DNA of 56,871 bases from NCBI GenBank assembly GCA_964435035.1, contig CAYSXR010000005.1, positions 10,564-67,434 on the forward strand, read 5' to 3'. Shown here in pieces: positions 9,189-40,003 of the stretch (position 1 is the first letter of the stretch; every line of letters starts with the position of its first letter). The notes beneath the pieces are model-generated. The model was not told the origin of the DNA and did no database searches. It saw only the letters and a list, made by a program, of their open reading frames with translations. The DNA is from an uncultured Gammaproteobacteria bacterium. GTDB lineage: Bacteria; Patescibacteriota; Patescibacteriia; Magasanikbacterales; UBA922. Position numbers and translations under genes: made by a program.

Positions 9189-10307
9189 ATGCGATATCGA
9201 AGTACTGTATTCCATGTGTTGTATCGCTCGATCCTTAAACCAATTTTTTTTGCACAAGATCCTGAAGCAATACATGATCGAATGGTTGCTATAGGTTCCA
9301 GGTTGGGGAGAAATACATTCACTAGAAAGCTAACTCAGATTTGTTTTAATTATACGAACCCTTCGCTTGGACAGAGTAAGTGGGGTATTTATTTTTGTAA
9401 TCCAGTGGGATTGGCTGCAGGATTTGATAAAGAGGGAAAACTATGCACGATAACAGGTGATGTAGGGTTTGGATTTACTGAAGTGGGGACCGTAACGTAT
9501 AGTGCTTATGAGGGTAATCCAAAGCCTCGACTATATCGTCTACCGCATTCACAGGGGCTCGTAGTCTATTATGGACTCAAAAATAGTGGAGCAGAAAATA
9601 TTGTGGCCCATCTGAGAACAGAGAAAAAAACGGTTCCCCGGGTAATATCAATAGGTAAAACAAATTGTAGTAGAACAGCGGATGAAGAAAGTGGTATTGA
9701 TGATTATAGAAAATGTGTGCAGGTATTTCGAGATCACAATGAGGGTGATATATATGAACTGAATATTTCGTGTCCCAATACATTTGGAGGTGAACCGTTC
9801 ACCACGCGGGATAGGTTGCAAAAACTACTTGAAGCATTGAATGTGGAGAAAATAGACAAGCCAATAATTCTAAAAATGCCTATCAATTTGCCATGGGAAG
9901 AATTTCGCGCACTGTTGGATGTGGCGTTATACTTTGGTGTGCAGGCAGTGAATATTGGTAATCTCAATAAAGATAGATCTGATGCCTCAATCAAAGAACA
10001 AATTCCCGAGAATATTCGAGGATCCATTAGTGGGAAGCCTACCTGGGAGCTCTCAAATGAGCTTATTTCAAAGACATATGCATATTGTGGTAACAAGATG
10101 GTAATTATTGGTACAGGGGGTATTTTTTCTGCCGAGGATGCATATGAGAAGATTAAGCGGGGAGCATCTTTGGTACAATTGATTACAGGGATGATTTATG
10201 AGGGCCCTCAGCTTATTGGTACAATCAATTATGAACTTGCACGTTTCCTCAAGCGTGATGGGTATAAGACAATTGCTGAAGCCGTAGGTGCTTATCACCG
10301 AACATGA
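9189..10307 (+). CDS. pyrD: dihydroorotate dehydrogenase, class 2 (quinone-dependent type)
   Basis: N-terminal membrane-association extension; NPVGLAAGFDKEGK, ELNISCPNT, IIGTGGIFSAEDAYEKIKRGASLVQL. Confidence 0.88.
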   Translation: MRYRSTVFHVLYRSILKPIFFAQDPEAIHDRMVAIGSRLGRNTFTRKLTQICFNYTNPSLGQSKWGIYFCNPVGLAAGFDKEGKLCTITGDVGFGFTEVGTVTYSAYEGNPKPRLYRLPHSQGLVVYYGLKNSGAENIVAHLRTEKKTVPRVISIGKTNCSRTADEESGIDDYRKCVQVFRDHNEGDIYELNISCPNTFGGEPFTTRDRLQKLLEALNVEKIDKPIILKMPINLPWEEFRALLDVALYFGVQAVNIGNLNKDRSDASIKEQIPENIRGSISGKPTWELSNELISKTYAYCGNKMVIIGTGGIFSAEDAYEKIKRGASLVQLITGMIYEGPQLIGTINYELARFLKRDGYKTIAEAVGAYHRT

Positions 10308-10336
10308 TTGACAATACGACCTATTTTAGCTAAACT
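10308..10336 (+). promoter_or_regulatory. sigma70-type promoter for tRNA-Thr
   Basis: TTGACA 10308-10313, 17-nt spacer, TAAACT 10331-10336. It lies about 50 nt upstream of the tRNA. Confidence 0.6.
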
Positions 10337-10388
10337 TATGGCTGCTTATAGAGTTGTATTTGCATTATCTTTTGACTTTTTTGCATAG

Positions 10389-10464
10389 GCCGATGTAGCT
10401 CAGCTGGTAGAGCGGCAGTATCGTAAACTGTAGGTCTCGGGTTCGATCCCCGACATCGGCTCCA
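10389..10464 (+). tRNA. tRNA-Thr (anticodon CGT), CCA encoded
   Basis: Acceptor GCCGATG/CATCGGC; D-arm GCTC-AGCTGGTA-GAGC; anticodon loop ATCGTAA; T-arm TCGGG-TTCGATC-CCCGA; 3-prime TCCA. Confidence 0.92.
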
Positions 10465-10500
10465 TACATAAAATAACCCATTTTGGGTTATTTTATGTAT
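10464..10500 (+). terminator. hairpin terminator after tRNA-Thr
   Basis: 16-bp perfect stem ATACATAAAATAACCC / GGGTTATTTTATGTAT. Confidence 0.7.
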
Positions 10501-10602
10501 GCGGTTTATACGGGTTTAATTTCTTCATGGATGAACTTATTGATTAATAGTATCATATTGTGATAAATTTAGGTGAATAATATACCTAGTATGGATAATA
10601 GT

Positions 10603-11472
10603 ATGAAAAAAGTCTTAGTAATTGGAGGAGGAAAAATTGGAAGTGCAATTGGAAAGATAGTCCAGAGTGGAGGAAAGCAAGTAGAGTGGTGGGATATTGA
10701 TCCTACAAAATGTACGGGAGAAGGAACACTGGAAGAACAGGTGATAGAGGCTGATGTAATATTTCTCTGTATTCATTCATGGGTAATACGAGAAACTCTG
10801 GTGAGAATCAAATCACACTTGAAACCTGAAACAGTGATTATTTCAGTTGCAAAAGGTTTTGAAAAAAATACCATGAAAACCGCGGATCAAATTGTGAAAG
10901 ACGTAGTACCACTGCAGCCGTTTGCCTTTTTTGGCGGACCTATGGTTGCTCCAGAAATTGATGCAGGGAAATACGCATTTGGAGCGGTAGCAAGTGAGTC
11001 ATCCGAGACATACACTCGTATTGTGGCACTGTTTCAGGGTAGTCGTATCCTATTGAACTATAGCGACGATGTACATGGTACCGTCCTTGCAGGTGTTTTG
11101 AAAAATGTGTATGCCATGGGGTTGGGGATGCTTGATGAACAGGGGATGGGGAGTAATGCTAGGGGTTGGTATGCAACCAAAGTAATTGAAGAAATGGGTA
11201 GAGAAATTGAAGCTTTGGGTGGAAAGAAGGAAACTACGTATACACTCGCGGGCATGGGAGATTTTATTGCAACAGGCATGAGTGAAGATTCGAGACATCG
11301 AGGAGAAGGTCGCCGTATTGCTGCAGGAGCAAAGCCGAGTGAGTGCGAAGGAGTGGTTTCAACTCCAATTGTCGTGGAATTGTTGGGTGACGTGAGTTCG
11401 TATCCACTACTCCATACGATTCATCATATTTTGCAAGGAAAACATGAACTATTAAGTGAGATTGTAAAGTAA
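10603..11472 (+). CDS. gpsA: NAD(P)H-dependent glycerol-3-phosphate dehydrogenase-like protein
   Basis: Rossmann motif VIGGGKIGSAIG; central GPMVAPEI; C-terminal LKNVYAMGLGM...LAGMGDFIATG. The start could also be 10591 or 10573. Confidence 0.8.
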   Translation: MKKVLVIGGGKIGSAIGKIVQSGGKQVEWWDIDPTKCTGEGTLEEQVIEADVIFLCIHSWVIRETLVRIKSHLKPETVIISVAKGFEKNTMKTADQIVKDVVPLQPFAFFGGPMVAPEIDAGKYAFGAVASESSETYTRIVALFQGSRILLNYSDDVHGTVLAGVLKNVYAMGLGMLDEQGMGSNARGWYATKVIEEMGREIEALGGKKETTYTLAGMGDFIATGMSEDSRHRGEGRRIAAGAKPSECEGVVSTPIVVELLGDVSSYPLLHTIHHILQGKHELLSEIVK

Positions 11473-11606
11473 ATAATAACTTAAAAAACTGTCTAAATAA
11501 GGCAGTTTTTTTGATTTGTGACATATGTACGTTCTTTTTATTGTGTGTGTATATTGTATCGCTATATTCCGATATGCTATACTATATTTTACTTGTATCA
11601 TTTTTT

Positions 11607-12287
11607 ATGATTACGCTCAAAAACGTAAGCAAACATTATTCCCGCGACAGCATCGGTTTACATGAAGTAAGTCTTCATATTGAACCAGGTGAATTTGTAT
11701 CAATCGTAGGACAGAGTGGAACGGGAAAAACAACACTAGTAAAAATGCTAATTGCCGAAGAGCGTCCGACTGCAGGATTTATTGAAATTGGGGGGTGGGA
11801 TATTACTAAAATTTCTCTTCATGATATTCCATTACTTCGCCGTCAGATTGGAGTTATTTTTCAGGATTTTAAATTATTACCAAAACGAACAGTTTTAGAA
11901 AACGTTTCATTTGCACTTGAAGTAGCAGGAGAAAAAAGAAAGCGAATTAAGCAGATTGTTCCACGTGTATTGGAAATTGTAGGACTGGCACATAAGGTGG
12001 ATCGTTATCCACATCAGCTTTCAGGTGGGGAACAGCAGCGTGTAGCAATTGCACGTTCACTCGTACACCGACCAAAAATTTTGGTAGCAGATGAACCTAC
12101 AGGAAATCTTGATTCCATCAATACGCAGGAAATTATTGAAATTTTGAAAAAAATAAATGAATTTGGAACCACGATCATGCTCGTAACCCACAATCGTGAA
12201 ATCGTAAATCAGTTGAAGAGAAGGGTAGTCGTACTCCACGACGGTCGCGTGGTATCTGATGAACGGGAAGGAAGATATCGCATCTAA
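11607..12287 (+). CDS. ftsE: cell division ATP-binding protein FtsE
   Basis: Walker [10 protein letters not shown], signature [14 protein letters not shown], Walker [16 protein letters not shown] 11607 ([11 protein letters not shown]) is preferred over the track start. Confidence 0.92.
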
Positions 12288-12328
12288 TTTTATTTGAACT
12301 TTGAAATTTGGATTTTGAACTTATTTTT

Positions 12329-13234
12329 ATGTCTCTTGGTCGCATTATCAAATTTTCATTTCAAGACATGGTGAGAAACATGAGCTTGTCATTCATGACC
12401 GTACTCATTTTGATTCTCATGTTACTCTCGATTAATACACTGATTATCGTCCGTGTACTTACTGATCAATCGATTCAATCAGTAAAAGATCAGATTGATG
12501 TGAGCATCTATTTTGACCCGACAGCAACTGATGAAAATATTGCAGAAGTGCGAGCATTTGTTTCTTCTCTCCCCGAAGTTACCGATGAGCGGTATTTGAC
12601 CAAAGAAGAAGTACTCGAAGAATTCAAAAAAACCTATTCTGGTAATACTGAAATTATCGAGTCCCTCGATGAACTAGGAGGAAATCCACTCGGTTCGACA
12701 CTCATCGTAAAAACGAGAGAACCAAAGGACTATCAGAAAATTATCAAAGCACTTTCGGTTCCCGAATACGAGAGTATTATTGAAGCAAAGACATTTGGAG
12801 ACACGGAAACTGCAATTGATCGAATCCAGACAATTACGGTGCAAGTAGAACGCTTTACGTATGCGTTAACCGCGCTATTTGCCATTATCGCATTTGTAAT
12901 TATTTTCAATACCATTCGTGTAGCTATCTATACACAACGCACCGAGATTGGAATCAAGCGATTGGTGGGTGCAACCAACTGGTTTATTAGTGGACCGTAT
13001 CTCGTGGAGTCATTTATTTTTACCGTCATAAGTGTCCTTATTACCAGTGTTATTGCATGGTTCACTCTCCAGTTCCTCGACCCCTATGTAAGTGTGATTT
13101 TTGAGTCAGAGGCAATCTTGACAAATTACTTCACGTCACATATACTCTTCCTGATTGGAATTCAATTCGGAGCAGTATTTCTTCTCACGCTCTTCTCGAG
13201 CATGCTTGCCATGAGACGGTATCTGCGGACGTAA
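12329..13234 (+). CDS. ftsX: cell division permease-like protein FtsX
   Basis: Follows ftsE. TM1, a periplasmic loop, then three TM helices with RTEIGIKRLVGATNWFI, which is typical of FtsX. Confidence 0.9.
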   Translation: MSLGRIIKFSFQDMVRNMSLSFMTVLILILMLLSINTLIIVRVLTDQSIQSVKDQIDVSIYFDPTATDENIAEVRAFVSSLPEVTDERYLTKEEVLEEFKKTYSGNTEIIESLDELGGNPLGSTLIVKTREPKDYQKIIKALSVPEYESIIEAKTFGDTETAIDRIQTITVQVERFTYALTALFAIIAFVIIFNTIRVAIYTQRTEIGIKRLVGATNWFISGPYLVESFIFTVISVLITSVIAWFTLQFLDPYVSVIFESEAILTNYFTSHILFLIGIQFGAVFLLTLFSSMLAMRRYLRT

Positions 13235-13254
13235 AAACGACAAACTTCGCCTCA

Positions 13255-13320
13255 CGTCATTCCCGCGAAAGCGGGAATCTGATATTAGAATTTAAGATCC
13301 CCGTTTTCACGGGGATGACG
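13255..13320. repeat. REP-like double hairpin element
   Basis: ATTCCCGC-GAAA-GCGGGAAT (13259-13278) and ATCCCCG-TTTTCA-CGGGGAT (13297-13316), bracketed by CGTCAT / ATGACG. Confidence 0.75.
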
Positions 13321-13329
13321 AATTTACAT

Positions 13330-13400
13330 TCGGGGATCGTCTAATGGTAGGACAGAGGCCTTTGAAGCCTTTTATCGGGGTTCGAATCCCTGTCCCCGAG
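13330..13400 (+). tRNA. tRNA-Gln (anticodon TTG)
   Basis: Acceptor TCGGGGA/TCCCCGA; anticodon stem GAGGC/GCCTT with loop CTTTGAA; T-arm CGGGG-TTCGAAT-CCCTG. Confidence 0.85.
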
Positions 13401-13402
13401 CT

Positions 13403-13440
13403 AATAAAATAATACGATCTATAGGTCGTATTATTTTATT
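13403..13440. terminator. AT-rich hairpin after tRNA-Gln (bidirectional)
   Basis: 15-bp stem AATAAAATAATACGA / TCGTATTATTTTATT. It sits between the tRNA (+) and the convergent small gene (-). Confidence 0.65.
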
Positions 13441-13451
13441 TCAGTTTTTAC

Positions 13452-13712
13452 CTATATTTTGCTCCCGCAGTGTTTACACTTTTTTGCTTCTTTCGGTATC
13501 CATTCAAGACACTGTGTACATTGCTTATTTTCTTTTTTGAAACTTCTGTTTTCAAGATATTTATCTGCTTTGTACATGCCTAGCTTGATAAGAATCAGGA
13601 CTAAGAGGACTATCCATACTGGCCACAAAATTTTTGCAAACCCCCAGAACCAGGGCCACACACCTGTTACTATTTCCCATAAACTCGGAGCTGGTAAAGG
13701 TTGGGTGTCCAT
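13452..13712 (-). CDS. small membrane protein with a C-terminal zinc ribbon
   Basis: 86 aa. Trp-rich TM segment (VWPWFWGFAKILWPVWIVLLVLILI), then CTQC...CKHC (two CxxC pairs). Confidence 0.6.
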   Translation of the reverse strand: MDTQPLPAPSLWEIVTGVWPWFWGFAKILWPVWIVLLVLILIKLGMYKADKYLENRSFKKENKQCTQCLEWIPKEAKKCKHCGSKI

Positions 13713-13930
13713 ATTGATAAGAGATGATTTTATGTATTAGTAAAGTAGTAGACGGCTTAGCCATCTCTACGTTTTTGCGGTTTTTTGACCATGCTCTAAA
13801 AGGAGTTTAGGTCTTCTTAAATTGTAACTAGATTGTATATTAAAGGTAAATAGAATTCAAGACTATTGTATTTGCATTATTTCTCGGTTTTAGCTAATGT
13901 AATGAGCATAAGGAATATATCTGAGTATCT

Positions 13931-16381
13931 ATGGAGACTATTGATGTTTCAAAAGAAAATTTTAAAGAGTTTAAAGATAAATTTGATAGTTGGAAAACTA
14001 TAGATTTGTCCGAATCGGATACTAGAAGTAAAGTTCTTGACCAAATTCTTATTAATATTTTAGGCTGGGACGAGAATGATATAAAAAGAGAGGAATATTC
14101 CGATAATGGAAAATATGATTATAAAGTAAGTACGGCAATTTTTCAATTTATTGTTGAGGCTAAGAGAAATTTTAAAGATTTAATACTTCCAGATACAGGA
14201 GGAAATAAATTTAAAATAAAAACCTTGATGAATAAAGGAAATACCAAAGTTATAGAACAAATTCGTCTATATCTTGTAGATCACGGATTGGCATATGGGG
14301 TAATTTCTAATGGCTATCAATTCGTGGTAGCTAAATTTGTAAATAATGACGGCACTGATTGGAAAAATAATGATTGTTACATATTTAGAAATTTAAATGA
14401 GATAGAAAATGATTTTATAACTTTTTTCAATCTTTTTTCTAAGGAGGCGGTATTAAAAAATGGAAGAATAAAGTTTTTTCAAGAAATACCAAAAGGTAAA
14501 ACAGTTTTAGAAATTAAAAATCCTTACAATAAGGATGAAGAAATTGTTAGAAATGAACTAAGTAGCATCCTTATTCAAATTGTTTCAGAAGTTTTCGAAA
14601 GTATATCCGACTTGGAGGATAACACTTTGTTAAAAGAATGTTATGTTGAGAACAAAGATGTAAAAAAGCAAAATTCTGAATTAGATATGTTGTTTCCTGA
14701 TAATCCTCCAAATTTTGACGATAAAATAGAAAGATTAAGAAACACAGCTAATACAAGGGATAAAATAAAAGAAAAAATTGTTAATGATTCTGTTTCTAAT
14801 CCAATCATTATTATTGGTAGTAAAGGTGCGGGAAAAACAACATTTATAAAATATTTTGTTGAGATAACTTTACAAGAAGATCGGAGATCAAAAAAAGTTC
14901 CTGTAATTTATCTCGATTTTAAGAATCATACTTATAGTCAAATAAAGAATACAGAAGCTATTTATAAAGATATTATTGATAAAGTAGAATCAAAATATCT
15001 GCAATACGACTTAACATCTATTGAAACACTAAAAAAAATTTATAATGCAGAGATTGAAAAAAACTTAAAGGGTATTTGGAATTTTTTAAAAGATAGCAAG
15101 GATGGTTTAGAACAAAAAATCTCTGAATTTTTGGAAATACAATTAAATGAAAAAATTAATCATCTTAAAAAGGTTTCTCAATATTTGTATACATACTACG
15201 GGGTTAGAATGTGCGTTGTGCTCGATAATGCAGATCAGTTAGATGATGATTCTCAAAAAGAGGTTTTTTTGTTATCACAAAGTATAAAAGATGCGATCAG
15301 AAGTTTAGTTATACTTTCATTACGCGAGGGTTATTACTTTCAGTGGAAGAATCACTCTCCGTTTGATGCCTATCCTTCTGTTGTTTATCATGTTACAGCT
15401 CCACCATATGGAGAAATTTTAAAAAAAAGAATTAAATATGTTCTTAAAAATTATAATTTTAATAAGATAAGAGCTAATTACAGAGGCAATATAAAAGTTA
15501 TATTAAAAGATGAACAAATTAAAAAGTTTTTTGAAACATTAGAAAATACATTTTTCAGTGAAATTAATAACGATGAGGTTTTAAAGTTTTTAGGCGAAAC
15601 TTCATATCCTAATATAAGATCTTTACTAGAAAAAGTTAGACTTTTTTTGCTTTCGGGTTATACAAAAATTTCAACTTACATAGCAATGGAGTTTGATAGA
15701 ATTCCAATTTGGGATTTTATTAAAACTATTTCCTTGGAATCAAGATACTACTATAAGAGTAGATTGAGCATTATTTTTAATTTATTCTACCCTGTGCAGG
15801 GAAATACTAATCATTTTACAAAGATTAGAATATTAAAATATCTTTATTATCGATTAACGATCGATAAAAATGAAAATTTTGAAGATTATAAAACAATCAG
15901 CAGCTTATTTTATAAGATTGGTTACGGTAGTGAGATATTAATAAAAGAGCTTAATGAACTTCTAAAGTATGGTCTCATTGAGACTCCTAACTCATCTTCT
16001 GATACAATAAATTTAAAAATTGATGAAAATTCAAAATTTAAAGTAACTTTATCTGGCAAGTATTATATCTGTAATTTATTATATCGTTCTATTTACATAG
16101 ATCTAGTTGCTCAAGATACTCCAATTTATGATGAAAATGCGTTAAATGAAATAGTGTCAAAATTCCCCATCTCTCAAAGAGATACAGGAAATAGAGATAT
16201 GAAAAACAGGGTAGAAGTAATTGAAAAATTTATTAACTATCTCGATAAGCAAGAAAAAATAGAACTTAATAATTTTAGCCAGGATGATGAGTTAAAAGCA
16301 ATTGATTTTTCAATTGTAGAATTAATAAAAAATAATGAGCGTTTTAACAAAGACATGGGGTTAATGAAAAGAAATATATAA
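13931..16381 (+). CDS. 816-aa fusion: N-terminal PD-(D/E)XK (HsdR_N/Mrr-like) nuclease domain, central P-loop NTPase, C-terminal helical domain
   Basis: SESDTRSKVLDQILINILGW, then D63 ... E76-A-K78 (nt 14117-14164). Walker A GSKGAGKTT (nt 14816-14842); Walker B CVVLDNAD (nt 15212-15235). The gene lies in a strongly AT-rich block. Confidence 0.75.
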   Translation: METIDVSKENFKEFKDKFDSWKTIDLSESDTRSKVLDQILINILGWDENDIKREEYSDNGKYDYKVSTAIFQFIVEAKRNFKDLILPDTGGNKFKIKTLMNKGNTKVIEQIRLYLVDHGLAYGVISNGYQFVVAKFVNNDGTDWKNNDCYIFRNLNEIENDFITFFNLFSKEAVLKNGRIKFFQEIPKGKTVLEIKNPYNKDEEIVRNELSSILIQIVSEVFESISDLEDNTLLKECYVENKDVKKQNSELDMLFPDNPPNFDDKIERLRNTANTRDKIKEKIVNDSVSNPIIIIGSKGAGKTTFIKYFVEITLQEDRRSKKVPVIYLDFKNHTYSQIKNTEAIYKDIIDKVESKYLQYDLTSIETLKKIYNAEIEKNLKGIWNFLKDSKDGLEQKISEFLEIQLNEKINHLKKVSQYLYTYYGVRMCVVLDNADQLDDDSQKEVFLLSQSIKDAIRSLVILSLREGYYFQWKNHSPFDAYPSVVYHVTAPPYGEILKKRIKYVLKNYNFNKIRANYRGNIKVILKDEQIKKFFETLENTFFSEINNDEVLKFLGETSYPNIRSLLEKVRLFLLSGYTKISTYIAMEFDRIPIWDFIKTISLESRYYYKSRLSIIFNLFYPVQGNTNHFTKIRILKYLYYRLTIDKNENFEDYKTISSLFYKIGYGSEILIKELNELLKYGLIETPNSSSDTINLKIDENSKFKVTLSGKYYICNLLYRSIYIDLVAQDTPIYDENALNEIVSKFPISQRDTGNRDMKNRVEVIEKFINYLDKQEKIELNNFSQDDELKAIDFSIVELIKNNERFNKDMGLMKRNI

Positions 16382-16444
16382 ATCGATTAATCAATTATTT
16401 CCCATTAAATATGTTCCGATCTCATCCCACAGCCGGAGCACATA

Positions 16445-16475
16445 AAAAATCCTGAGTGAGTGTCAGGATTTTTTA
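16445..16475 (+). terminator. intrinsic terminator after the 816-aa gene
   Basis: AAAAATCCTGA-GTGAGTG-TCAGGATTTTT followed by Ts. Confidence 0.8.
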
Positions 16476-16518
16476 TTTATACATTTCATGCTATACTTTC
16501 CCAATAAATTTCCACAGT

Positions 16519-17187
16519 ATGTGTTTCTCTCCAGAAGCGAGTTTTACCGCTGCAGCCCTTCTCTCTGTAGCAGGTGGTGCTGCGGTTATCAAAAATAAAC
16601 AAATCAAAAAAGCTCTACCTATTGCAATCATACCGCTTATTTTTGCAATCCAGCAAGCAATTGAAGGAATACTTTGGGTGAATATCCAAGGGAGTGGGGA
16701 ATACACGTTGCTATTTACGTATCTGTTTCTCTTCTTTGCACTCTTTTGGTGGCCTGCATATGTACCACTGAGCGTCTATCTGCTCGAAGACAATCCTCGA
16801 CGGAAGCAAATACTCATGTGGTTCATGGGGGCTGGAATTATGCTCGGTACTGCACTCTATGGAGCATTTATTATGAATCCGGCTCCAGCCACCGTTGTGA
16901 ATAGTTGTATCTACTATGACTATACGACCTCATTTGGTACGCTCGCAATTGTAGTATACGGACTCACGACTATTGTGGCTGGTCTTATATCAAGCAATCG
17001 AAATGTGAAATTTTTGTATTTTGTATTTTGGATATTGGCACTCGTTGCGTGGAAGCTCTATTTAGTCAATTTTACTTCAGTATGGTGTTTTTTTGCAGCA
17101 ATCGTAAGCGCGATTATTTGCTGGTTTGACTTTTCAGTAAAGCCAAATAAAATTTCCATGAAAAAAATGTTTTCCATAAAACACTAG
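16519..17187 (+). CDS. integral membrane protein, unknown function
   Basis: About 6 TM helices. ATG 16519 (MCFSPEASFTAAALLSV) is chosen because the track start at 16456 lies inside the upstream terminator. Confidence 0.65.
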   Translation: MCFSPEASFTAAALLSVAGGAAVIKNKQIKKALPIAIIPLIFAIQQAIEGILWVNIQGSGEYTLLFTYLFLFFALFWWPAYVPLSVYLLEDNPRRKQILMWFMGAGIMLGTALYGAFIMNPAPATVVNSCIYYDYTTSFGTLAIVVYGLTTIVAGLISSNRNVKFLYFVFWILALVAWKLYLVNFTSVWCFFAAIVSAIICWFDFSVKPNKISMKKMFSIKH

Positions 17188-17271
17188 AGCAGCATCAGAC
17201 GTAGTTCATATCCTTGATCTATACCTCAAGAACATGATACACTTCTCCTCATTACATACGCATTACCAACT

Positions 17272-18192
17272 ATGAATACTGAACTCAACTTGTTTATTGT
17301 CTTTGCGGTAATTATTATTGGATTTTTGGTTGCGGATCTGGGATTTTTCAATAGAAAGGCACACAAGATTTCGCTCAAGTCAGCGTTTCTTCAGTCCATG
17401 TTCTGGATCGGTATTTCATGTGCCTTTGCTGTACTTATCTGGTGGGCGGAGGGGGGAGATCAAGCGGCAGCGTTCATGAGTGCATATGTTACTGAGAAAA
17501 TGCTTTCAGTTGATAATTTATTTGTTATATTACTTATCTTTAGTTTTTTTAAGCTAGAAGAAAAATATTATCACAAAGTTCTTTTTTGGGGGATCATAGG
17601 AGCAATTGTATTCCGTGCAATTTTTATTGGAGTGGGGGCCTACATTATCAGTCAATTTCATTGGGTGCTTTATATTTTCGGGGCAATTTTACTGTACACA
17701 GGTGTCAAACTCTTTAGAGATAAGAAAGAAGAACATGCTGACTTCCATGAACATGCAATTTTGAAGTTCGCAAAGAAGATTTTTCGATTTAGTACCAATT
17801 ACCATGACGGCAAGTTCTTCCTTAAGGAAAATGGAAAGTGGCATGCCACAGTCCTTTTCATGATCGTGCTTTTGGTAGAAGGTACGGACATTATATTTGC
17901 AGTTGACTCTATTCCCGCAGCATTCTCGATCTCTCAAGATCCGTTTATTGTCTTTACCTCAAATATATTCGCGGTTATGGGGCTTCGTGCACTATTCTTC
18001 CTTATTGAGGGTGTAGTTCACAAATTCCATTATTTACAGAAAGGTCTTTCATTTATACTTGTTTTTATCGGATTAAAGATGCTTGCAGGTATATTTCATA
18101 TTCATCTTTCATCACTTATGTCATTTGGAATTATCATGTCAGCTCTTGGAGTATCACTTCTCTTGTCAGTAGTATTTCCGAAAAAGATTTAG
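17272..18192 (+). CDS. TerC family integral membrane protein
   Basis: YVTEKMLSVDNLFVILLIF and LVEGTDIIFAVDSIPAAFSISQDPFIVFTSNIFAVMGLRALFF are the duplicated TerC motifs. Confidence 0.9.
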   Translation: MNTELNLFIVFAVIIIGFLVADLGFFNRKAHKISLKSAFLQSMFWIGISCAFAVLIWWAEGGDQAAAFMSAYVTEKMLSVDNLFVILLIFSFFKLEEKYYHKVLFWGIIGAIVFRAIFIGVGAYIISQFHWVLYIFGAILLYTGVKLFRDKKEEHADFHEHAILKFAKKIFRFSTNYHDGKFFLKENGKWHATVLFMIVLLVEGTDIIFAVDSIPAAFSISQDPFIVFTSNIFAVMGLRALFFLIEGVVHKFHYLQKGLSFILVFIGLKMLAGIFHIHLSSLMSFGIIMSALGVSLLLSVVFPKKI

Positions 18193-20320: not shown

Positions 20321-20827
20321 CTAACTTGAGCGCTCTTTTTTTATGATTATATAATCAATTTTTTTCTTTCCGATCTCGACGGTAATAGTATCTCCAACTT
20401 TTTTCCCAATGAGTGCTTCTCCTATGGGGGAATTATGTGAAATGATTCCCTTGTGCGGGTTAGTCTCACTTGATCCTAATATTTGGTATGTTTTTTCTGT
20501 TCCGTTGGACTCCACCGTGACCGTGTCTCCAAGTTCAATGGTAACACTTGTGGATTTGGAAGAAATAATTTCTGAATGTTTGAGCTGGTTTTCTAGAATG
20601 AGTATTCGTTGGTTGACTGATCGGAGCTTTCCTTTTGCCAATTGATATTCTACGTTTTCAGAAAAGTCTCCGAGCTCTGCGAGGCGACCCACTTCTTTTG
20701 CTAGCTTTGGACGATCTGTATACAATTGCTCGAGTTTGCGAGTGAGCTCATCTAGCTTTTCTTGGGTAACAAAAGGGTCCAAGGGGGTGTGGGCATATTT
20801 GCCTAGTTTTCGGTAAGGAAGTTGCAT
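20321..20827 (-). CDS. greA: transcription elongation factor GreA
   Basis: Coiled-coil NTD (ELGDFSENVEYQLAKGKLRSVNQRILILENQL) and CTD (ISHNSPIGEALIGKKVGDTITV). Confidence 0.92.
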   Translation of the reverse strand: MQLPYRKLGKYAHTPLDPFVTQEKLDELTRKLEQLYTDRPKLAKEVGRLAELGDFSENVEYQLAKGKLRSVNQRILILENQLKHSEIISSKSTSVTIELGDTVTVESNGTEKTYQILGSSETNPHKGIISHNSPIGEALIGKKVGDTITVEIGKKKIDYIIIKKERSS

Positions 20828-21024
20828 AGGACAGTATCATAGCAAGTATACGGTGTTTTTACAAAAATACACCAGAATTGTCTGATGTATTTTTGTAATG
20901 GAGCGATGGCAAGCTCCTGGTTGAATTGCTTCTGCTTCTGTGTCCATCCGCTCATGTGGGAGCGCATAGAAGCAGGGTATAAGGAACATCATCGGTGCAC
21001 TCATGCGTAATACACGTCTGGTAT

Positions 21025-21663
21025 CTAGGAACGATCATAGTGGGCGAGTTTCTTTTCCATGTCTTTCCGTGCATAGAAGAGCCGACTTGTCACGGTGCCG
21101 AGAGGGCATCCAAGTGAGGTTGCGATCTCTTCATAGCTCATGCCGCGGAGTTCTCTCATCTCGAAAACCACTCGGTTTCTGGGAGGAAGTGTATTCAGCG
21201 CTCTAGTGAACTGTGTGCAGTACTCATGGTGCAGGTATACTGCATCAGGAGTAGGGATGTCCGCGTGCATGCGAATATCCTGTCGTGTCTCATCATGCAT
21301 CCTGGTGTCGAAGTACTCAGTAGACGCTGCACGCCTTTCCTTTCGAATGCGGTCGATGCAGGTGTTCTTCGTGAGCATCCAGAGCCAGGTTGAAAACGTG
21401 CATTTCTCATCAAACGTTTTCACATGGGTGAGAACTTTCACGAAGACATCATGCATGACGTCTTGCGCCGCTTCGAGATTGCGAACCATGGAGTACGCAA
21501 TCTTCATGATCAGTTTGCGGTACCTCTGGTAGAGTTGTTGGAATGCGCGATGATCGCCTTCTTTGCAGAGTGCGATGATGTTACTCTCTTCAATCGCGGT
21601 AGGTTTGTCTTTTTTCAAGGTGTACCTCCGTAATATGGTTCTAGTCCCCTCAAGTAGACACAT
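21025..21663 (-). CDS. ECF-type RNA polymerase sigma factor (GC-rich, C-ending codon bias)
   Basis: Region 2 (DVMHDVFVKVLTHVKTFDEKCTFSTWLWMLTKNTCIDRIRKERR) and region 4 (MSYEEIATSLGCPLGTVTSRLFYARK). Composition is clearly higher in GC than the neighbours. Confidence 0.85.
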   Translation of the reverse strand: MCLLEGTRTILRRYTLKKDKPTAIEESNIIALCKEGDHRAFQQLYQRYRKLIMKIAYSMVRNLEAAQDVMHDVFVKVLTHVKTFDEKCTFSTWLWMLTKNTCIDRIRKERRAASTEYFDTRMHDETRQDIRMHADIPTPDAVYLHHEYCTQFTRALNTLPPRNRVVFEMRELRGMSYEEIATSLGCPLGTVTSRLFYARKDMEKKLAHYDRS

Positions 21664-25516: not shown

Positions 25517-27043
25517 ATGGAAAAAAATATTCAATTCATTCTTGATGAGCTCTACCAGATTGATCCTGAGTTGAAAAATCATCAAGTGGAAATCGCACAA
25601 ATAGTTGATACTATGATGAAACATAAACCACATACGCAATTCGATGAGAATTTTGCCCGTGAACTGAAAACAAAAGTACTTGAAAAGTTTTCTCATGGGA
25701 TTACGACAGAAAAAAAGCCGTTCTCATTTTTTAGATCAAAATTTGTCTATACACTCAGTGGTGCGCTTGCAACACTTGCGATTGCACTGCCGATTGTGTA
25801 TGTGACGTCAGGAAACATCTCGAATCAATGGGTAAAGAACAGTTTTACGGGTGGAACACAGGTCGTACGAGCTGAGGCAAATGCATTTGGTCCATTATCA
25901 CCGGTGACAGCGAATGTGAATACGGCTGAAAGTGCGACTAATGTAGCGGCTCCGATGACAGCGGGTATGGGGGGTGATGCGGTGAAGATCAGCGGTACGT
26001 CTCTCTTGTATAATCCAGAATATATTAATTATCATTTTACATTCAATGGAGAATTGCCAGAATTGGATGATAGTATTGAGGTTTTGAAACGTGAGTCAGG
26101 AACTGATGCTGCAACACAATATGCGGGAATACTACAAAAAATAAAATTAGGCATTTTCGATCTGGGAAAAATACAGCAAGCACGAGTACAAAATTTTTCT
26201 CTTGTTGAAGATAGAGAACAAGGCTATGTGATAAATGTGGATATGATTGGAGGAACAGTGTCGATTTCAGAAAATTACTCTGCATGGGCGTGGCGTTCAG
26301 CGCGACCATTCATCGAATGTAGTGTCGATTCTTGCGTTGATCCGAATAGAATTACGATTGATGAAGTGCCTGAAGATGTCGAATTATTGAAAGTCGCTGA
26401 TGAATTTTTGAAAGAATATGGGATAGATATGAGCTCGTATAGCGCGGGGAAGGTAGATACTCGTTGGAGAATTGGATATGAACGTGCAGAAGATAAGGAT
26501 GCATTCTATATCTCAAATATACAGACTATCATATACCAGCTGATGATTGACGGCATGCCTGTCTATGAAGAATATGGTGAGCCGATGGGTATCCGAGTGA
26601 ATGTCAATGCAACTGAGATGAGAGTAACCAATGTCGATGGAATTATGACAAAGAAATTTAGCGCATCTTCCTATGTCGGAGAGACTGATGATGCACGTCT
26701 CCGTGCACTGATTGAAAAAGGGAGAATGGTCGCATATGATCAGCCTTCTAAGACAGTAGAAGCAGAGTTAGAAAATGCAAAAAAAGGATATATGCGCCGG
26801 TGGCAATACAATGAGAGTAACGGAATTTCAAGTGAAATATTTGTTCCTGCAATCATTGTGGAAGTGAAGGATTTCGAACGATTGCAGGGCGAAGGATTGT
26901 GGCAGAGTAATATTGTAATTCCGCTTGCAAGTGAAATGTTGACCGAGCTTGAAAAACAGGCAGAAGAACCTGTACATATCATGCCATTTGATGCGACACT
27001 GAAAGACGCAGTGAGTGAGCCTGCGGTAGAGCCACGAGGCTAA
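25517..27043 (+). CDS. membrane-anchored protein downstream of the sigma factor (possible anti-sigma with a large extracytoplasmic domain)
   Basis: About 80-aa cytoplasmic helical N-terminus, a single TM (FVYTLSGALATLAIALPIVYV), and a 400-aa external domain. The role is inferred from context. Confidence 0.45.
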   Translation: MEKNIQFILDELYQIDPELKNHQVEIAQIVDTMMKHKPHTQFDENFARELKTKVLEKFSHGITTEKKPFSFFRSKFVYTLSGALATLAIALPIVYVTSGNISNQWVKNSFTGGTQVVRAEANAFGPLSPVTANVNTAESATNVAAPMTAGMGGDAVKISGTSLLYNPEYINYHFTFNGELPELDDSIEVLKRESGTDAATQYAGILQKIKLGIFDLGKIQQARVQNFSLVEDREQGYVINVDMIGGTVSISENYSAWAWRSARPFIECSVDSCVDPNRITIDEVPEDVELLKVADEFLKEYGIDMSSYSAGKVDTRWRIGYERAEDKDAFYISNIQTIIYQLMIDGMPVYEEYGEPMGIRVNVNATEMRVTNVDGIMTKKFSASSYVGETDDARLRALIEKGRMVAYDQPSKTVEAELENAKKGYMRRWQYNESNGISSEIFVPAIIVEVKDFERLQGEGLWQSNIVIPLASEMLTELEKQAEEPVHIMPFDATLKDAVSEPAVEPRG

Positions 27044-27048
27044 GAATA

Positions 27049-27080
27049 AAAACATCCCGACTAAGTCGGGATGTTTTCTT
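27049..27080. terminator. bidirectional intrinsic terminator
   Basis: AACATCCCGAC-TAA-GTCGGGATGTT with flanking A- and T-runs, between convergent genes. Confidence 0.8.
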
Positions 27081-27148
27081 ATATGAAAGGTAGGAACCGT
27101 CATGCGCGATATGGAAGTATATGCGCACATGACGGGGATTCAGCGGAC

Positions 27149-27559
27149 TCAGGGGAGTTCGAGAATCTTGGTGAACAGTGCCTGCAGATCGAGCGTACCT
27201 TCATCATCGGTCATCGCGATCTCTGTCAGGCACTGAGTTGGCAGATCATGTGACTGCTGACTGAATGCCGGACTGTGGTTGTAGACGCCGGCGAAGGTAC
27301 GTGGAGGGTTCTTTTCGTCGAATTTCCGAGACATCATCGGGGCCCTCGTTTCCTGGATCAGGATGAAGGCACGGGTCGAATCGAGCGGAATCATGCCGAT
27401 CACGCGAAACGTCTGGTGAGTGTAGTCGCACACGCGCCCTTTGTTGTAGACGAAGCGCACAGTGAAGACCGGGTGAGTTCCACTTGTGTGCATGGAGTAG
27501 TACAGACTGGTGACGAGTTCGTCCCAGCCAGGACCTCTATTGATGATGAGTGTGAGCAT
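27149..27559 (-). CDS. hypothetical protein (136 aa) in a GC-rich patch
   Basis: The minus-strand frame shows strong C/G third-position bias (ctc atc ggc gac gtc acc ...) and a protein-like sequence. The overlapping plus-strand ORFs look like shadows. Confidence 0.6.
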   Translation of the reverse strand: MLTLIINRGPGWDELVTSLYYSMHTSGTHPVFTVRFVYNKGRVCDYTHQTFRVIGMIPLDSTRAFILIQETRAPMMSRKFDEKNPPRTFAGVYNHSPAFSQQSHDLPTQCLTEIAMTDDEGTLDLQALFTKILELP

Positions 27560-27681
27560 GCGTTGCCCCTATCCGGTTGTTGTATTTGATTGAAGCACAC
27601 GAGAGAGTAATGCTTCTTCAGGAAAAGATTATCACAATATGTGATTTTGTAAAGGAGGGGAGTATGTTATACTAAAATTCT

Positions 27682-28833
27682 ATGCACACCAACTTTTGGA
27701 AATATTTCGCAATTATGAGTGCCTCAGCAGCTGTTGTGGCTATGATGGTCACCTGGGTATTCTGGTCGTCTAGCCCATCAGATTCTAGTAACAACAGTCC
27801 AAGTGTTAGTAAGAAGACTGTTGAAGAAAATAATGAGAATGCCGTGCTGGTAGTTCCAGAAAAAGATAAACTCACTATACTCGCAGCAGGGGACATCATG
27901 CTCGATCGCACGATGCTTCTTTTGGCACAAAAACATAATGATTTTGGTTATTCATTTCGCATGATTTCTTCTACCATGCGACAAGCCGATCTCCGTGTAG
28001 CGAATCTCGAAGGACCTATAACCACAAATAAATCTATTTCAAATGGCGAAGGGGGTGCCCGATTTAGTTTTACGTTTTCACCAAAAGTCACCTCAACACT
28101 CAAAGAAAATTTTGATGTGGTGAGTCTGGCAAATAATCACACCACGAATTTCGGATTCGAAGGTCTAGAACAAACCAAAAAGTTTCTTGACGAAGCAGGA
28201 ATAGAGTGGTTTGGCGATCCGAATAATCGGGCAGGGCAAAAACTTTCGGTAATCGTGGAAAAAAATGGATTCAAGATTGGATTTGTAGGATATCATCAAC
28301 TCGTAGAAATTGGTTTTGAACAGGTGATTGCCGAGGTAGAAAAAATTCGTCCCGAGGTAGATATCATTATTGCCTACCCGCATTGGGGAGTCGAGTATGT
28401 GACGACCACCCCTTCACTGCTCCAAGAAAAAGAAGCTCATGCATTGGTAGATGCAGGTGTTGATATAGTCATTGGTGCACACCCACATGTGATTCAGCCT
28501 GTGGAAATATATAAAGATAAAATTATATTTTATAGTCTAGGAAATTTTGTATTCGATCAATATTTTTCACTTCAAACCATGCAAGGACTGTTACTTTCAT
28601 TAGAATTAGAAAAAGATACTGAAAATATTGATACAAGAATTACTTTAATTCCGGTACATATTAATAAGCAGAGTCAGCCATTTGTAGCGGATAGTGTTGA
28701 GCGTGAATCAGTTCTTTCACTCGTTGGCCGAGTGTCAATTGGAGATGAAAATTTAAGAGAATCAATAACAAATGGAATGATCTCCTTTACAGTCCCGGTT
28801 CAAAAAAATACGGTGCTAGTACCGATGAAATAA
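27682..28833 (+). CDS. CapA family protein (PGA_cap metallophosphatase-like)
   Basis: LAAGDIMLDR, ANLEGPIT, SLANNHTTNFG, YPHWGVEY, GAHPHVIQP, YSLGNFVFDQ. Confidence 0.88.
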   Translation: MHTNFWKYFAIMSASAAVVAMMVTWVFWSSSPSDSSNNSPSVSKKTVEENNENAVLVVPEKDKLTILAAGDIMLDRTMLLLAQKHNDFGYSFRMISSTMRQADLRVANLEGPITTNKSISNGEGGARFSFTFSPKVTSTLKENFDVVSLANNHTTNFGFEGLEQTKKFLDEAGIEWFGDPNNRAGQKLSVIVEKNGFKIGFVGYHQLVEIGFEQVIAEVEKIRPEVDIIIAYPHWGVEYVTTTPSLLQEKEAHALVDAGVDIVIGAHPHVIQPVEIYKDKIIFYSLGNFVFDQYFSLQTMQGLLLSLELEKDTENIDTRITLIPVHINKQSQPFVADSVERESVLSLVGRVSIGDENLRESITNGMISFTVPVQKNTVLVPMK

Positions 28834-39635: not shown

Positions 39636-40003
39636 CTCGGCGGGCGGGGCTCGAACCCGCGACCCACTGGTTACAGTTTCCTCTCTCTTTCAAGAGAGAC
39701 TGGACTATGTCATCACCCATGCCGTAAACCTGGAAAATAAATCCTCCAAGAGCCTGGGGGTGCGGAGCGCTTCCCGCCCCGACAATGTCGGGGAAGTACT
39801 CCCATAAAGGGATAGTCTCTGAACCTTCCTAACCCATTACTAATTCCAGTAAAACTGGAGTATCAAGTTAGGCTTGGCTGCAGGTTACCCTATGAAATTC
39901 ATAGTAGCGGTTTCCTGCAATTCACTCCGTTGGCATCCTGACATTACTATCAGGAGCTGCTAATTTTTAACAGCCAGTTGCTCTACCACTGAGCTACCGC
40001 CGA
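39636..40003 (-). tRNA. tRNA-Asn (anticodon GTT) interrupted by a group I intron in the anticodon loop
   Basis: Exon 1 is 40003-39970 (TCGGCGG TA GCTC AGTGGTA GAGC A ACTGG CTGT). Exon 2 is 39673-39636 (TAA CCAGT GGGTC GCGGG TTCGAGC CCCGC CCGCCGA G). Joined, they give a 72-nt cloverleaf with loop CTGTTAA. Confidence 0.85.
39674..39969 (-). ncRNA. group I self-splicing intron (296 nt, no ORF)
   Basis: P1: exon GCUGU pairs with intron GCAGC, with a U-G wobble at the splice site. The terminal intron nucleotide is G (39674). Core elements are GCAGCCAAGCCUAAC (plus coords 39867-39883), GGUUCAGAGACUAU (39812-39825) and GACAUAGUCC (39702-39711), matching the Tetrahymena and Azoarcus cores. Confidence 0.85.

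Follow-up and report, generated by a model that had tools for sequence, protein, structure and literature searches.

Immune proteins that join an effector, an NTPase and a sensor are well known, and several described systems of this kind resemble a protein of 816 amino acids (aa) encoded beside a tRNA-Gln gene of an uncultured bacterium of the Candidatus Magasanikbacteria (Patescibacteria, also called candidate phyla radiation, CPR). The gene lies in a stretch of 56,871 nucleotides of contig CAYSXR010000005.1 (GenBank assembly GCA_964435035.1, positions 10,564 to 67,434), which was analysed as a whole and is referred to as the window. The genomes of Magasanikbacteria are minimal, and little is known of the means by which these bacteria resist phages. 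The protein carries a nuclease domain at its N-terminus, followed by a P-loop NTPase, a helical lid and a winged-helix-like region. We hold with moderate confidence that it is a stand-alone, NTP-gated nuclease, which protects its host against phages or other invading DNA.

Judged by analogy, the systems that seem functionally closest to the family of the 816-aa protein are bNACHT25, which combines an Mrr-like restriction endonuclease (REase) with a NACHT domain, and the nuclease-bearing Avs proteins. The window protein resembles bNACHT proteins in several respects: these are single-gene defence proteins whose N-terminal effector has the REase fold, whose STAND-type NTPase sits in the middle together with helical and winged-helix domains, and whose C-terminal region is short and evolves fast (SNaCT-like). 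Both the family and the bNACHT proteins occur on mobile elements and in defence islands (10.1101/2022.07.19.500537; PMC12169576). However, the Walker B signature of NACHT proteins is D[GAS]hDE (10.1101/2022.07.19.500537), whereas the family studied here has an invariant D-N-x-D-Q. Its nuclease belongs to the HsdR_N type, not to the Mrr-like one, and a helical insert of 95 aa separates its Walker motifs. With the Avs (AVAST) proteins Avs1-21, the family has in common the effector-NTPase-sensor logic, nuclease effectors, the stand-alone gene and the location in prophages and defence islands, and in Avs proteins the nuclease is activated by trigger-induced oligomerisation (PMC13581612), the mechanism that is also proposed for the family. 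The window protein, however, has about half the size of Avs proteins, lacks a TPR or beta-propeller sensor and contains only around 190 aa after the lid, whereas the sensors clustered in PMC13581612 comprise at least 400 aa. None of the Avs models of PADLOC-DB v2, a set that ends before Avs7-21, was matched by the window protein or by six further family members.

The KAP defence proteins PifA, Tmn, QatA and EF_KAP likewise consist of one polypeptide, in which an NTPase controls a fused module, and the insert between the Walker motifs of the family recalls theirs. For single-gene KAP NTPase fusions, anti-phage activity has been shown experimentally and depends on Walker B, which is required in KAP proteins (PMC13552941). 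While the inserts of the KAP family usually carry transmembrane helices, the window protein has none, neither in the insert nor elsewhere. Moreover, KAP defence proteins are membrane proteins without a recognisable nuclease (PMC13552941), whereas the effector of the family is N-terminal and recognisably a nuclease. The best structural matches come from the AAA+ proteins of the Orc1/Cdc6 clade, which includes BrxC/DUF499 of BREX-type (bacteriophage exclusion) systems (PMC12839542) and TnsC. These share the P-loop core, lid and winged helix, and the mad8 P-loop and TIGR02928 profiles match weakly. The likeness is confined to the fold; the window protein does not possess the D-E of Walker B. The defence ATPases of this clade, BrxC, DUF499 and SspC, work in multi-gene systems (PMC12839542, PMC10853773), whereas the window protein is fused to its nuclease and stands alone, with no methyltransferase, PglZ or helicase partner. 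With HsdR of type I restriction-modification (R-M) systems, finally, only the nuclease domain is common (group HSDR_N/HSDR_N_2, COG2810; PMC3424549), as seen in the matching D...ExK, QxR and NGxQ motifs and, weakly, in the structural match to 3h1t. A superfamily 2 helicase motor is absent from the window protein, and HsdM or HsdS are neither encoded in the window nor conserved in relatives. Type I and type III R-M were rejected for lack of a helicase motor, a methyltransferase and a specificity subunit, in agreement with an earlier interpretation of the locus made from the DNA letters alone (the sequence-only reading). Since effector-NTPase-sensor proteins are well known, no categorically new principle is involved; the family appears to be a compact and widespread variant that has no name yet and carries a signature of its own. 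The gene and the domains of its product are arranged as follows (all on the plus strand, in window coordinates):

13931 to 16381, plus strand: nuclease-NTPase gene encoding 816 aa, complete coding sequence with stop codon, from the listing of open reading frames (ORFs)
14012 to 14470, plus strand: HsdR-N-type PD-(D/E)XK nuclease domain, aa 28-180, with E28, D63, E76-A-K78, Q110 and N127-G128-x-Q130
14471 to 14785, plus strand: linker, aa 181-285, partly disordered in the model, with invariant R207, N208, S211, C237, D257, P259 and P260
14786 to 15406, plus strand: P-loop NTPase core, aa 286-492, with Walker A, helical insert, Walker B and the sensor-1-like R465
15407 to 15805, plus strand: helical lid domain, aa 493-625, from AlphaFold2 (AF2) secondary structure and Foldseek alignments to Cdc6, ORC and STAND proteins
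15806 to 16378, plus strand: winged-helix-like domain and helical tail, aa 626-816, with the AF2 elements H630-644, H653-662, H667-679 and E702-705

The ORF and the motifs named in the sequence-only reading, which comprise SESDTRSK (aa 27-34), D63, E76-A-K78, the Walker A lysine K302 and Walker B, were all recovered at the residues it gave. Two AF2 models were produced, one of the full-length protein (predicted local distance difference test, pLDDT, 80.4; predicted template modelling score, pTM, 0.69) and one of residues 1-240 (pLDDT 78.7). Both contain a nuclease core of the order alpha-beta-beta-beta-alpha-beta with pLDDT values of 84-93, in which D63 lies on the second strand (aa 60-67) and E76-A-K78 at the end of the third (aa 72-77). 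The predicted position of the catalytic D...(D/E)xK triad on strands 2 and 3 is that of PD-(D/E)XK nucleases. HSDR_N_2 matches 20 of 22 N-termini of family members at E<=0.1 (best E=1.3e-6) and exceeds the Pfam cut-off of 25 bits in Klebsiella relatives, with 26.6 and 25.9 bits. The top Foldseek matches of the isolated N-terminal domain are weak (best E=0.01) but nearly all PD-(D/E)XK nucleases, including the HsdR fragment 3h1t (E=0.012, probability 0.99, TMq 0.35, 161 columns), RecU/PrfA, Hjc, HincII, HhaI, Cas4 and SfsA. In the classification of Steczkiewicz, 3h1t, PF13588 and COG2810 (with PF04313) form one PD-(D/E)XK group (PMC3424549). In the linker that follows, residues 243-271 have pLDDT values below 50.

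The NTPase core contains the Walker A motif G296-x2-G-x-G-K302-T (GSKGAGKTT) and the Walker B motif D432-N-x-D435-Q (VVLDNADQ). The two are separated by about 130 residues because the AF2 model places a helical insert of 95 aa (aa 331-425) between them, which, as read from the sequence, is hydrophilic and devoid of a transmembrane segment. AAA_22 narrowly passes on the window protein (28.1 bits, cut-off 27), and KAP_NTPase (PF07693) is found in the Klebsiella relative with 28.7 bits (cut-off 20). The window protein itself gave no KAP_NTPase match at E<=1, and many Bacteroidota members of the family have weak precomputed PF07693 matches. TIGR02928 (Orc1/Cdc6) reached 21.3 bits against a cut-off of 181.3, and nothing exceeded the NCBIfam cut-offs. 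With the full-length model, Foldseek recovered Cdc6 (1fnn, E=3e-6), subunits of the origin recognition complex (ORC), CED-4, Apaf-1, NOD2, NRC2, Dark and TnsC as well as TniQ-TnsC over 450-600 columns. The arrangement of an NTPase, a helical domain and a winged helix is common to the STAND and Orc/Cdc6 clades, so that the fold match does not discriminate between them. In the model, an NTPase core is followed by a helical domain and a winged helix, the order expected of a STAND protein. R465 is located at the end of the strand formed by aa 459-465 and, on this modelled position, may represent the cis sensor-1 arginine, which in STAND switches follows strand 4. ResIII and Helicase_C did not match the window protein, nor did the McrB/AAA_5 and GmrSD/Mrr models. 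Sequence searches against the chains of the Protein Data Bank with the single protein, an N-terminal profile and a family profile returned generic P-loop matches only, and the viral structure library only generic AAA+, KAP and clamp-loader matches.

The C-terminal 330 residues or so had been described from the sequence as helical and devoid of a recognisable motif. They contain the AAA+/STAND lid, the winged-helix-like domain and a variable helical tail. Residues 626-816 vary more than any other part of the protein (entropy of 2.01 bits, compared to 1.24 bits for the catalytic cores; Mann-Whitney p=2e-13) and are a candidate specificity or sensor region. Such fast C-terminal evolution parallels that of the SNaCT sensor of bNACHT01 (10.1101/2022.07.19.500537). 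C-terminal repeat families (TPR, WD40, LRR) were not detected in the roughly 190 residues that follow the lid.

A word-indexed search yielded more than 311 full-length relatives of around 820 aa with 38-68% identity, mostly from Bacteroidota and Ignavibacteria, which databases list as 'hypothetical', 'P-loop NTPase fold protein' or the like. The nearest relatives share 57-67% identity and come from metagenomic contigs. An exhaustive profile search found 2827 representatives of 50%-identity clusters at E<=1e-3, of which 879 reach E<=1e-30. Conservation was assessed with the best 150 of the 2827 representatives, 145 of which were absent from the word-indexed search, and 126 of these 145 had at least 750 aa. 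The final alignment comprises 127 sequences, namely the window protein and 126 full-length representatives with 20-42% identity (median 25%). D63, E76, Q110, G128, K302, D432, N433 and D435 are conserved in 127/127 sequences, K78 in 126/127, R465 in 123/127 and Q436 in 112/127. Conservation of the nuclease residues, on which the sequence-only reading had made its case depend, was thereby confirmed, and the Walker motifs are equally well conserved. The near-invariance of both catalytic centres indicates that nuclease and NTPase are maintained by selection. All family-invariant residues are retained in the window protein, whose ORF is intact over 816 codons. The family is also matched over its full length by a PHROG of unknown function (phrog_14719, E=7.5e-82).

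The genes surrounding the homologs differ at every examined locus and none is conserved, but mobile and defence genes are frequently among them. Abi_C is encoded beside the homolog at two loci (L001 and L041), together with DUF4145 at L001. Four Alistipes loci (L003-L006) contain a tyrosine integrase, an HTH_17 excisionase and a HEPN protein, and a further locus (L007) a large serine recombinase. Other neighbourhoods harbour a Gp49/HTH toxin-antitoxin pair, an AAA_15/21 ATPase and an N6/N4 methyltransferase (L043), a DEAD helicase of 1012 aa with DUF433, DUF5615 and PIN toxin-antitoxin modules (L044), or MazG and an SLFN-type helicase (L045). One homolog resides on an IncFIB plasmid (L046) and another on a Shewanella plasmid, where IS30 and a type II R-M system adjoin it (L047), and a homolog of K. 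aerogenes comes after phage genes for terminase and capsid and carries the annotation 'Predicted type IV restriction endonuclease' (L048). Distant full-length relatives with 21-26% identity are carried by 32 plasmids. In E. coli, 8 of 5426 complete genomes encode a full-length relative. Its homology is genuine, with 24% identity over 759 residues (E=3e-33) and all catalytic residues in common. WP_040091717.1 of strain 789 and WP_045170235.1 are Rac-prophage homologs of E. coli. In the two strains inspected, its gene is a reverse-oriented moron of a Rac-like lambdoid prophage, located between the replication module and the nin/Q region. At seven out of seven homolog loci the gene is richer in A+T than its host, for instance in Alistipes with a G+C content (GC) of 0.31 compared to 0.52. 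The family is thus distributed as a stand-alone, mobile, defence-associated and partner-less gene. With plasmids, Rac-like prophages, integrases, Abi_C, toxin-antitoxin modules, type II R-M and, in the window, the tRNA-Gln hotspot, this context agrees with the proposal that the 816-aa gene is a one-gene defence candidate.

In the window, the gene is part of a horizontally acquired cargo, which extends from 13402 to about 16445 and sits where the 3' end of tRNA-Gln acts as an integration hotspot. The features of this slot are:

13330 to 13401, plus strand: tRNA-Gln(UUG), found by ARAGORN and by Rfam (63.5 bits), its 3' end serving as attachment site and bounding the variable slot on the left
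13403 to 13440, plus strand: A+T-rich, terminator-like 17-bp hairpin directly after tRNA-Gln, the sole site returned by the terminator scan
13452 to 13712, minus strand: ORF of 86 aa for a membrane-anchored zinc-ribbon protein within the variable slot, from the ORF listing
13713 to 13930, plus strand: A+T-rich intergenic stretch upstream of the nuclease-NTPase gene (GC 0.303), the presumed promoter region
16409 to 16445 (approximate), plus strand: decayed copy of the tRNA-Gln 3' end (remnant of an attachment site, att), the right boundary of the variable slot, from the alignment to the second copy in the related locus L014
16442 to 16476, plus strand: 14-bp hairpin flanked by A and U, bidirectional and terminator-like, part of the core genome (folding dG -15.8 kcal/mol, z -3.2)

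The GC of the 816-aa gene is 0.265 (0.197 at third codon positions), whereas 980 windows of 2451 bp outside the island have a mean of 0.397 with a standard deviation (sd) of 0.016 and a minimum of 0.359; the gene therefore lies about 8 sd below the mean. In a sliding-window analysis, GC drops to 0.26-0.27 over 14001-16500 and is around 0.40 elsewhere. The contrast of an AT-rich island with flanks of about 40%, described in the sequence-only reading, is thereby reproduced. Nucleotide homology to the related loci L008, L010 and L014 ends at 13401-13414, that is, at the 3' end of tRNA-Gln, and homology to L014 picks up again at 16433, shortly before the gene of a DUF6629 membrane protein. Both L014 and L010 contain an exact second copy of the 14-nucleotide tRNA-Gln 3' end. 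Duplications of this kind are typically left behind when an element integrates into a tRNA gene. No intact second copy was found in the window, whose decayed att copy reads CCCACAGCCGGAGCACATAAAAAATCC, compared to CCCTGTCCCCGAGCTAATAAAAAATCC in the second copy of L014. The hotspot at the tRNA was rightly recognised in the sequence-only reading, which had the island begin about 0.3 kb downstream of tRNA-Gln; its start, however, is at 13402, directly at the tRNA 3' end. The same reading had attributed a strong terminator to the gene. This claim could not be upheld, since the hairpin at 16442-16476, which was missed by the terminator scan and confirmed by folding, is kept in L014, a locus without the 816-aa gene, and hence is a pre-existing feature of the core genome and not cargo. 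No conservation of the hairpin at 13403-13440 was seen in the related loci by nucleotide comparison.

Using the flanking ftsX gene, 33 related loci were collected from reference genomes, nearly all of which are labelled Candidatus Magasanikbacteria, Patescibacteria or Parcubacteria; the nearest relative is L008, whose FtsX is 98% identical. These matches place the host among the CPR bacteria. A relative of the 816-aa protein is encoded in 0/33 of these loci; the gene is not syntenic in relatives and is compositionally foreign, as anticipated. The slot holds the zinc-ribbon ORF and the 816-aa gene in the window, an ORF for a membrane protein of 154 aa in L014 and, in L010, a CD-NTase (DncV-like NTFase and AGS_C) of the CBASS type (anti-phage signalling by cyclic oligonucleotides). 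In the latter locus, the CD-NTase and two small ORFs form a CBASS-like operon at 10064-12459. This finding argues for an exchange of cyclic-nucleotide defence systems among CPR bacteria at tRNA-Gln. The CBASS genes of L010 lie outside the segment bounded by att copies, which indicates that the hotspot has more than one insertion point. L009 (3156-11080) and L011 (9031-16955) share one element at tRNA-Gln, probably an integrative defence element, which encodes a UvrD-like helicase, a large serine recombinase (Resolvase, Recombinase and Zn_ribbon_recom) and a DUF4238/SEC-C protein. The tRNA-Gln slot is a real integration and defence hotspot. L008 contains another insertion after tRNA-Gln (about 10070-17300), which includes a Zot-family assembly ATPase (PF05707, E=3e-7) and may represent a CPR prophage of the inovirus-like kind. 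Ahead of the second tRNA-Gln 3'-end copy, L014 (10825-10885) and L010 (9880-9936) have an element of about 35 nucleotides in common, which contains the hairpin cgaaaaccNgaaggttttcg.

For the 816-aa protein, a function in defence is likely, and the following mechanism is proposed. At rest, the central STAND/Orc-Cdc6/KAP-like P-loop NTPase (K302, D432/D435, R465) would keep the protein inactive and probably monomeric. An infection signal would be recognised by the fast-evolving C-terminal winged-helix and helical region, possibly together with the helical insert of the NTPase, and would elicit a nucleotide-dependent conformational change and oligomerisation. The N-terminal HsdR-type PD-(D/E)XK domains (D63, E76, K78) would then be brought together and cleave DNA; the invader would be destroyed or, should the nuclease cut without discrimination, abortive infection would follow. 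The individual steps differ in plausibility. Chances are about even that the nuclease is licensed by the NTPase in the role of a switch or oligomerisation module; a switch is suggested by R465 at the presumed cis sensor-1 position and by the Walker B motif D-N-x-D-Q, which is devoid of the catalytic glutamate of AAA+ proteins. Sensing of a phage-derived trigger by the C-terminal region can be put forward only tentatively.

Several observations weigh against this proposal. On the window protein, HSDR_N_2 scores 15.7-17.6 bits and stays below the Pfam cut-off of 25, and Foldseek gave zero matches of the N-terminal domain at E<=0.001. The STAND profiles also remain below their cut-offs (NACHT 14.7 versus 26.7, NB-ARC 12.3 versus 23.5, nSTAND_NTPase5 13.2 versus 34 bits), and because the family is without the large repeat sensor of STAND immune receptors, the trigger-sensing step is speculative. 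Upstream of the gene, a scan for sigma-70 promoters did not rise above background, with 22 sites compared to 16.9 ± 4.8 expected from shuffled sequences. In Bernardetia (L042), the homolog lies amid housekeeping genes. Only two distant relatives were found in IMG/VR and none among the INPHARED phages. The window protein and six family members matched no system model of PADLOC-DB v2, where similarity was restricted to single domains (the mad8 P-loop, the N-terminus of DrmMI and PDC-M28C). No entry naming or testing the family was found in PADLOC, Pfam, NCBIfam or the literature; the family may be among the 589 STAND clades of PMC13581612, which were not part of that comparison.

The alternative that survives best is a restriction enzyme that senses DNA directly and independently of a methyltransferase, following a type IV or McrBC-like logic within one polypeptide. 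According to this alternative, to which we assign a rather low but appreciable probability, the Orc/Cdc6-like NTPase and the winged helix would load onto or scan DNA and the nuclease would cut at a foreign modification or structure, so that neither a phage protein as trigger nor cell suicide would be involved. The best structural matches are indeed DNA-loading ATPases with winged-helix DNA binders (Orc1/Cdc6, ORC, TnsC), the nuclease belongs to the HsdR_N group (PF04313/PF13588/COG2810; PMC3424549), and the K. aerogenes relative bears its type IV annotation. Furthermore, no methyltransferase adjoins the gene in a conserved manner, the C-terminal region is too small for a typical STAND protein sensor, and EF_KAP, a single-gene defence system of the KAP type, was reported not to act by abortive infection (PMC13552941). 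However, Walker B reads D-N-x-D-Q and not D-E as in hydrolysing AAA+ translocases, R465 appears to occupy the cis-acting sensor-1 position typical of STAND switches, and McrB/AAA_5 or GmrSD/Mrr models do not match; the variable C-terminal region is compatible with both explanations. In a related and still less probable version, the family would be a new class of immune nuclease, compact and made of one polypeptide, whose Orc/Cdc6-STAND-like NTPase senses nucleic acid directly via the winged helix and the variable tail. Such an 'ORC-like loader fused to HsdR nuclease', which ranges from E. coli prophages to ultra-small CPR bacteria and needs no repeat sensor, methyltransferase or partner, would discriminate foreign DNA by a principle not described so far.

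It is improbable that the family is a genuine defence family and the copy in the window a silent or decaying passenger. Such a state would fit the degenerate right att copy in a slot without a recombinase and the lack of a significant promoter signal. The extreme difference in GC, which implies little amelioration, could be taken in the same sense, but low amelioration points to a recent arrival rather than to decay, and the ORF is intact with all family-invariant residues. Even less probable is a function for the mobile elements themselves, either in transposition and target selection like TnsA/TnsC or as an Orc-like replication, maintenance or addiction module. Foldseek matches to TnsC and TniQ-TnsC complexes, the frequent occurrence on integrative elements, plasmids and prophages and the use of Orc/Cdc6-clade ATPases by Tn7- and Mu-type transposons (PMC10853773) speak for such a function. 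However, no transposase (TnsB/DDE) or TniQ is conserved among neighbours that vary at every examined locus, for which reason the Tn7-like interpretation was rejected; the gene is alone and has no terminal repeats of its own, in E. coli it forms a reverse-oriented moron of a Rac-like prophage that is standard in other respects, and the ORF list and Pfam scan show no recombinase in the window island. That the protein is merely a foreign-looking housekeeping factor of DNA repair or replication, in which PD-(D/E)XK nucleases and Orc-like ATPases are also known and for which the neighbours in Bernardetia might speak, is effectively refuted by its absence from 33/33 close host relatives, its rarity in E. 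coli, its GC far below that of the host and the lack of conserved synteny. The stand-alone, NTP-gated defence nuclease remains the preferred interpretation. In line with it, the matches obtained (HSDR_N_2, AAA_22/KAP/NACHT-like P-loop models and the folds of Cdc6, ORC, CED-4, Apaf-1 and TnsC) do not place the gene in a housekeeping family, and the sequence-only reading is supported with minor corrections.

The gene is flanked in the window by FtsE/X, DUF6629, TerC and LCP genes. Within the slot, the 86-aa ORF encodes a protein that starts with a hydrophobic segment and ends with a zinc ribbon (CxxC...CxxC). The ORF has a host-like GC of 0.398 and is without a Pfam match, but is similar to several PHROGs of unknown function (phrog_8436, E=4e-10). 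A relative is present in 0/33 related loci, which marks the ORF as a separate small acquisition in the same hotspot. The sequence-only reading had left open whether this protein is unrelated to the nuclease-NTPase or its partner. The partnership was rejected, as the ORF co-occurs with the family at none of the homolog loci and is absent from relatives. The downstream DUF6629 membrane gene (16456-17187, plus strand) has a mechanically assigned GTG start that falls within the terminator hairpin; its Pfam match begins at residue 22 and its L014 ortholog starts further downstream, and translation probably begins with the ATG at about 16519 instead. Elsewhere in the window, GC maxima of 0.47-0.48 stand out at 20501-21500 and 26501-28000 from values otherwise near 0.40, and Rfam detected no rRNA or other RNA in these two regions. 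A group I intron (about 39671-39966) splits the anticodon loop of a tRNA-Asn(GUU) at about 39637-40003 on the minus strand. Rfam Intron_gpI matches there over the full model (39681-39979, 88.1 bits, E=6e-21), and the exons read TCGGCGGTAGCTCAGTGGTAGAGCAACTGGCTGTTAA ... CCAGTGGGTCGCGGGTTCGAGCCCCGCCCGCCGA, forming a tRNA not reported by ARAGORN.

If the 816-aa gene is a working defence gene, a widespread and compact one-gene immune nuclease would be added to the known repertoire, with a family of about 880 clusters at 50% identity across Bacteroidota, Proteobacteria and CPR. The interest of the family would be higher if DNA is sensed directly without a partner, and lower if the latest STAND or DefenseFinder resources already include it. 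Its D-N-x-D-Q signature falls between the NACHT/STAND, KAP and Orc/Cdc6 clades, and could help to explain how small switches of the STAND-like kind recognise infection when no large repeat sensor is present. A role of the family in defence is directly testable, since full-length relatives occur in Rac-like prophages of E. coli and on Klebsiella plasmids. For the biology of CPR bacteria, the locus means that a tRNA-Gln hotspot swaps defence cargo among Magasanikbacteria, comprising the 816-aa gene, CBASS and the recombinase/helicase/DUF4238 element, along with a Zot element.

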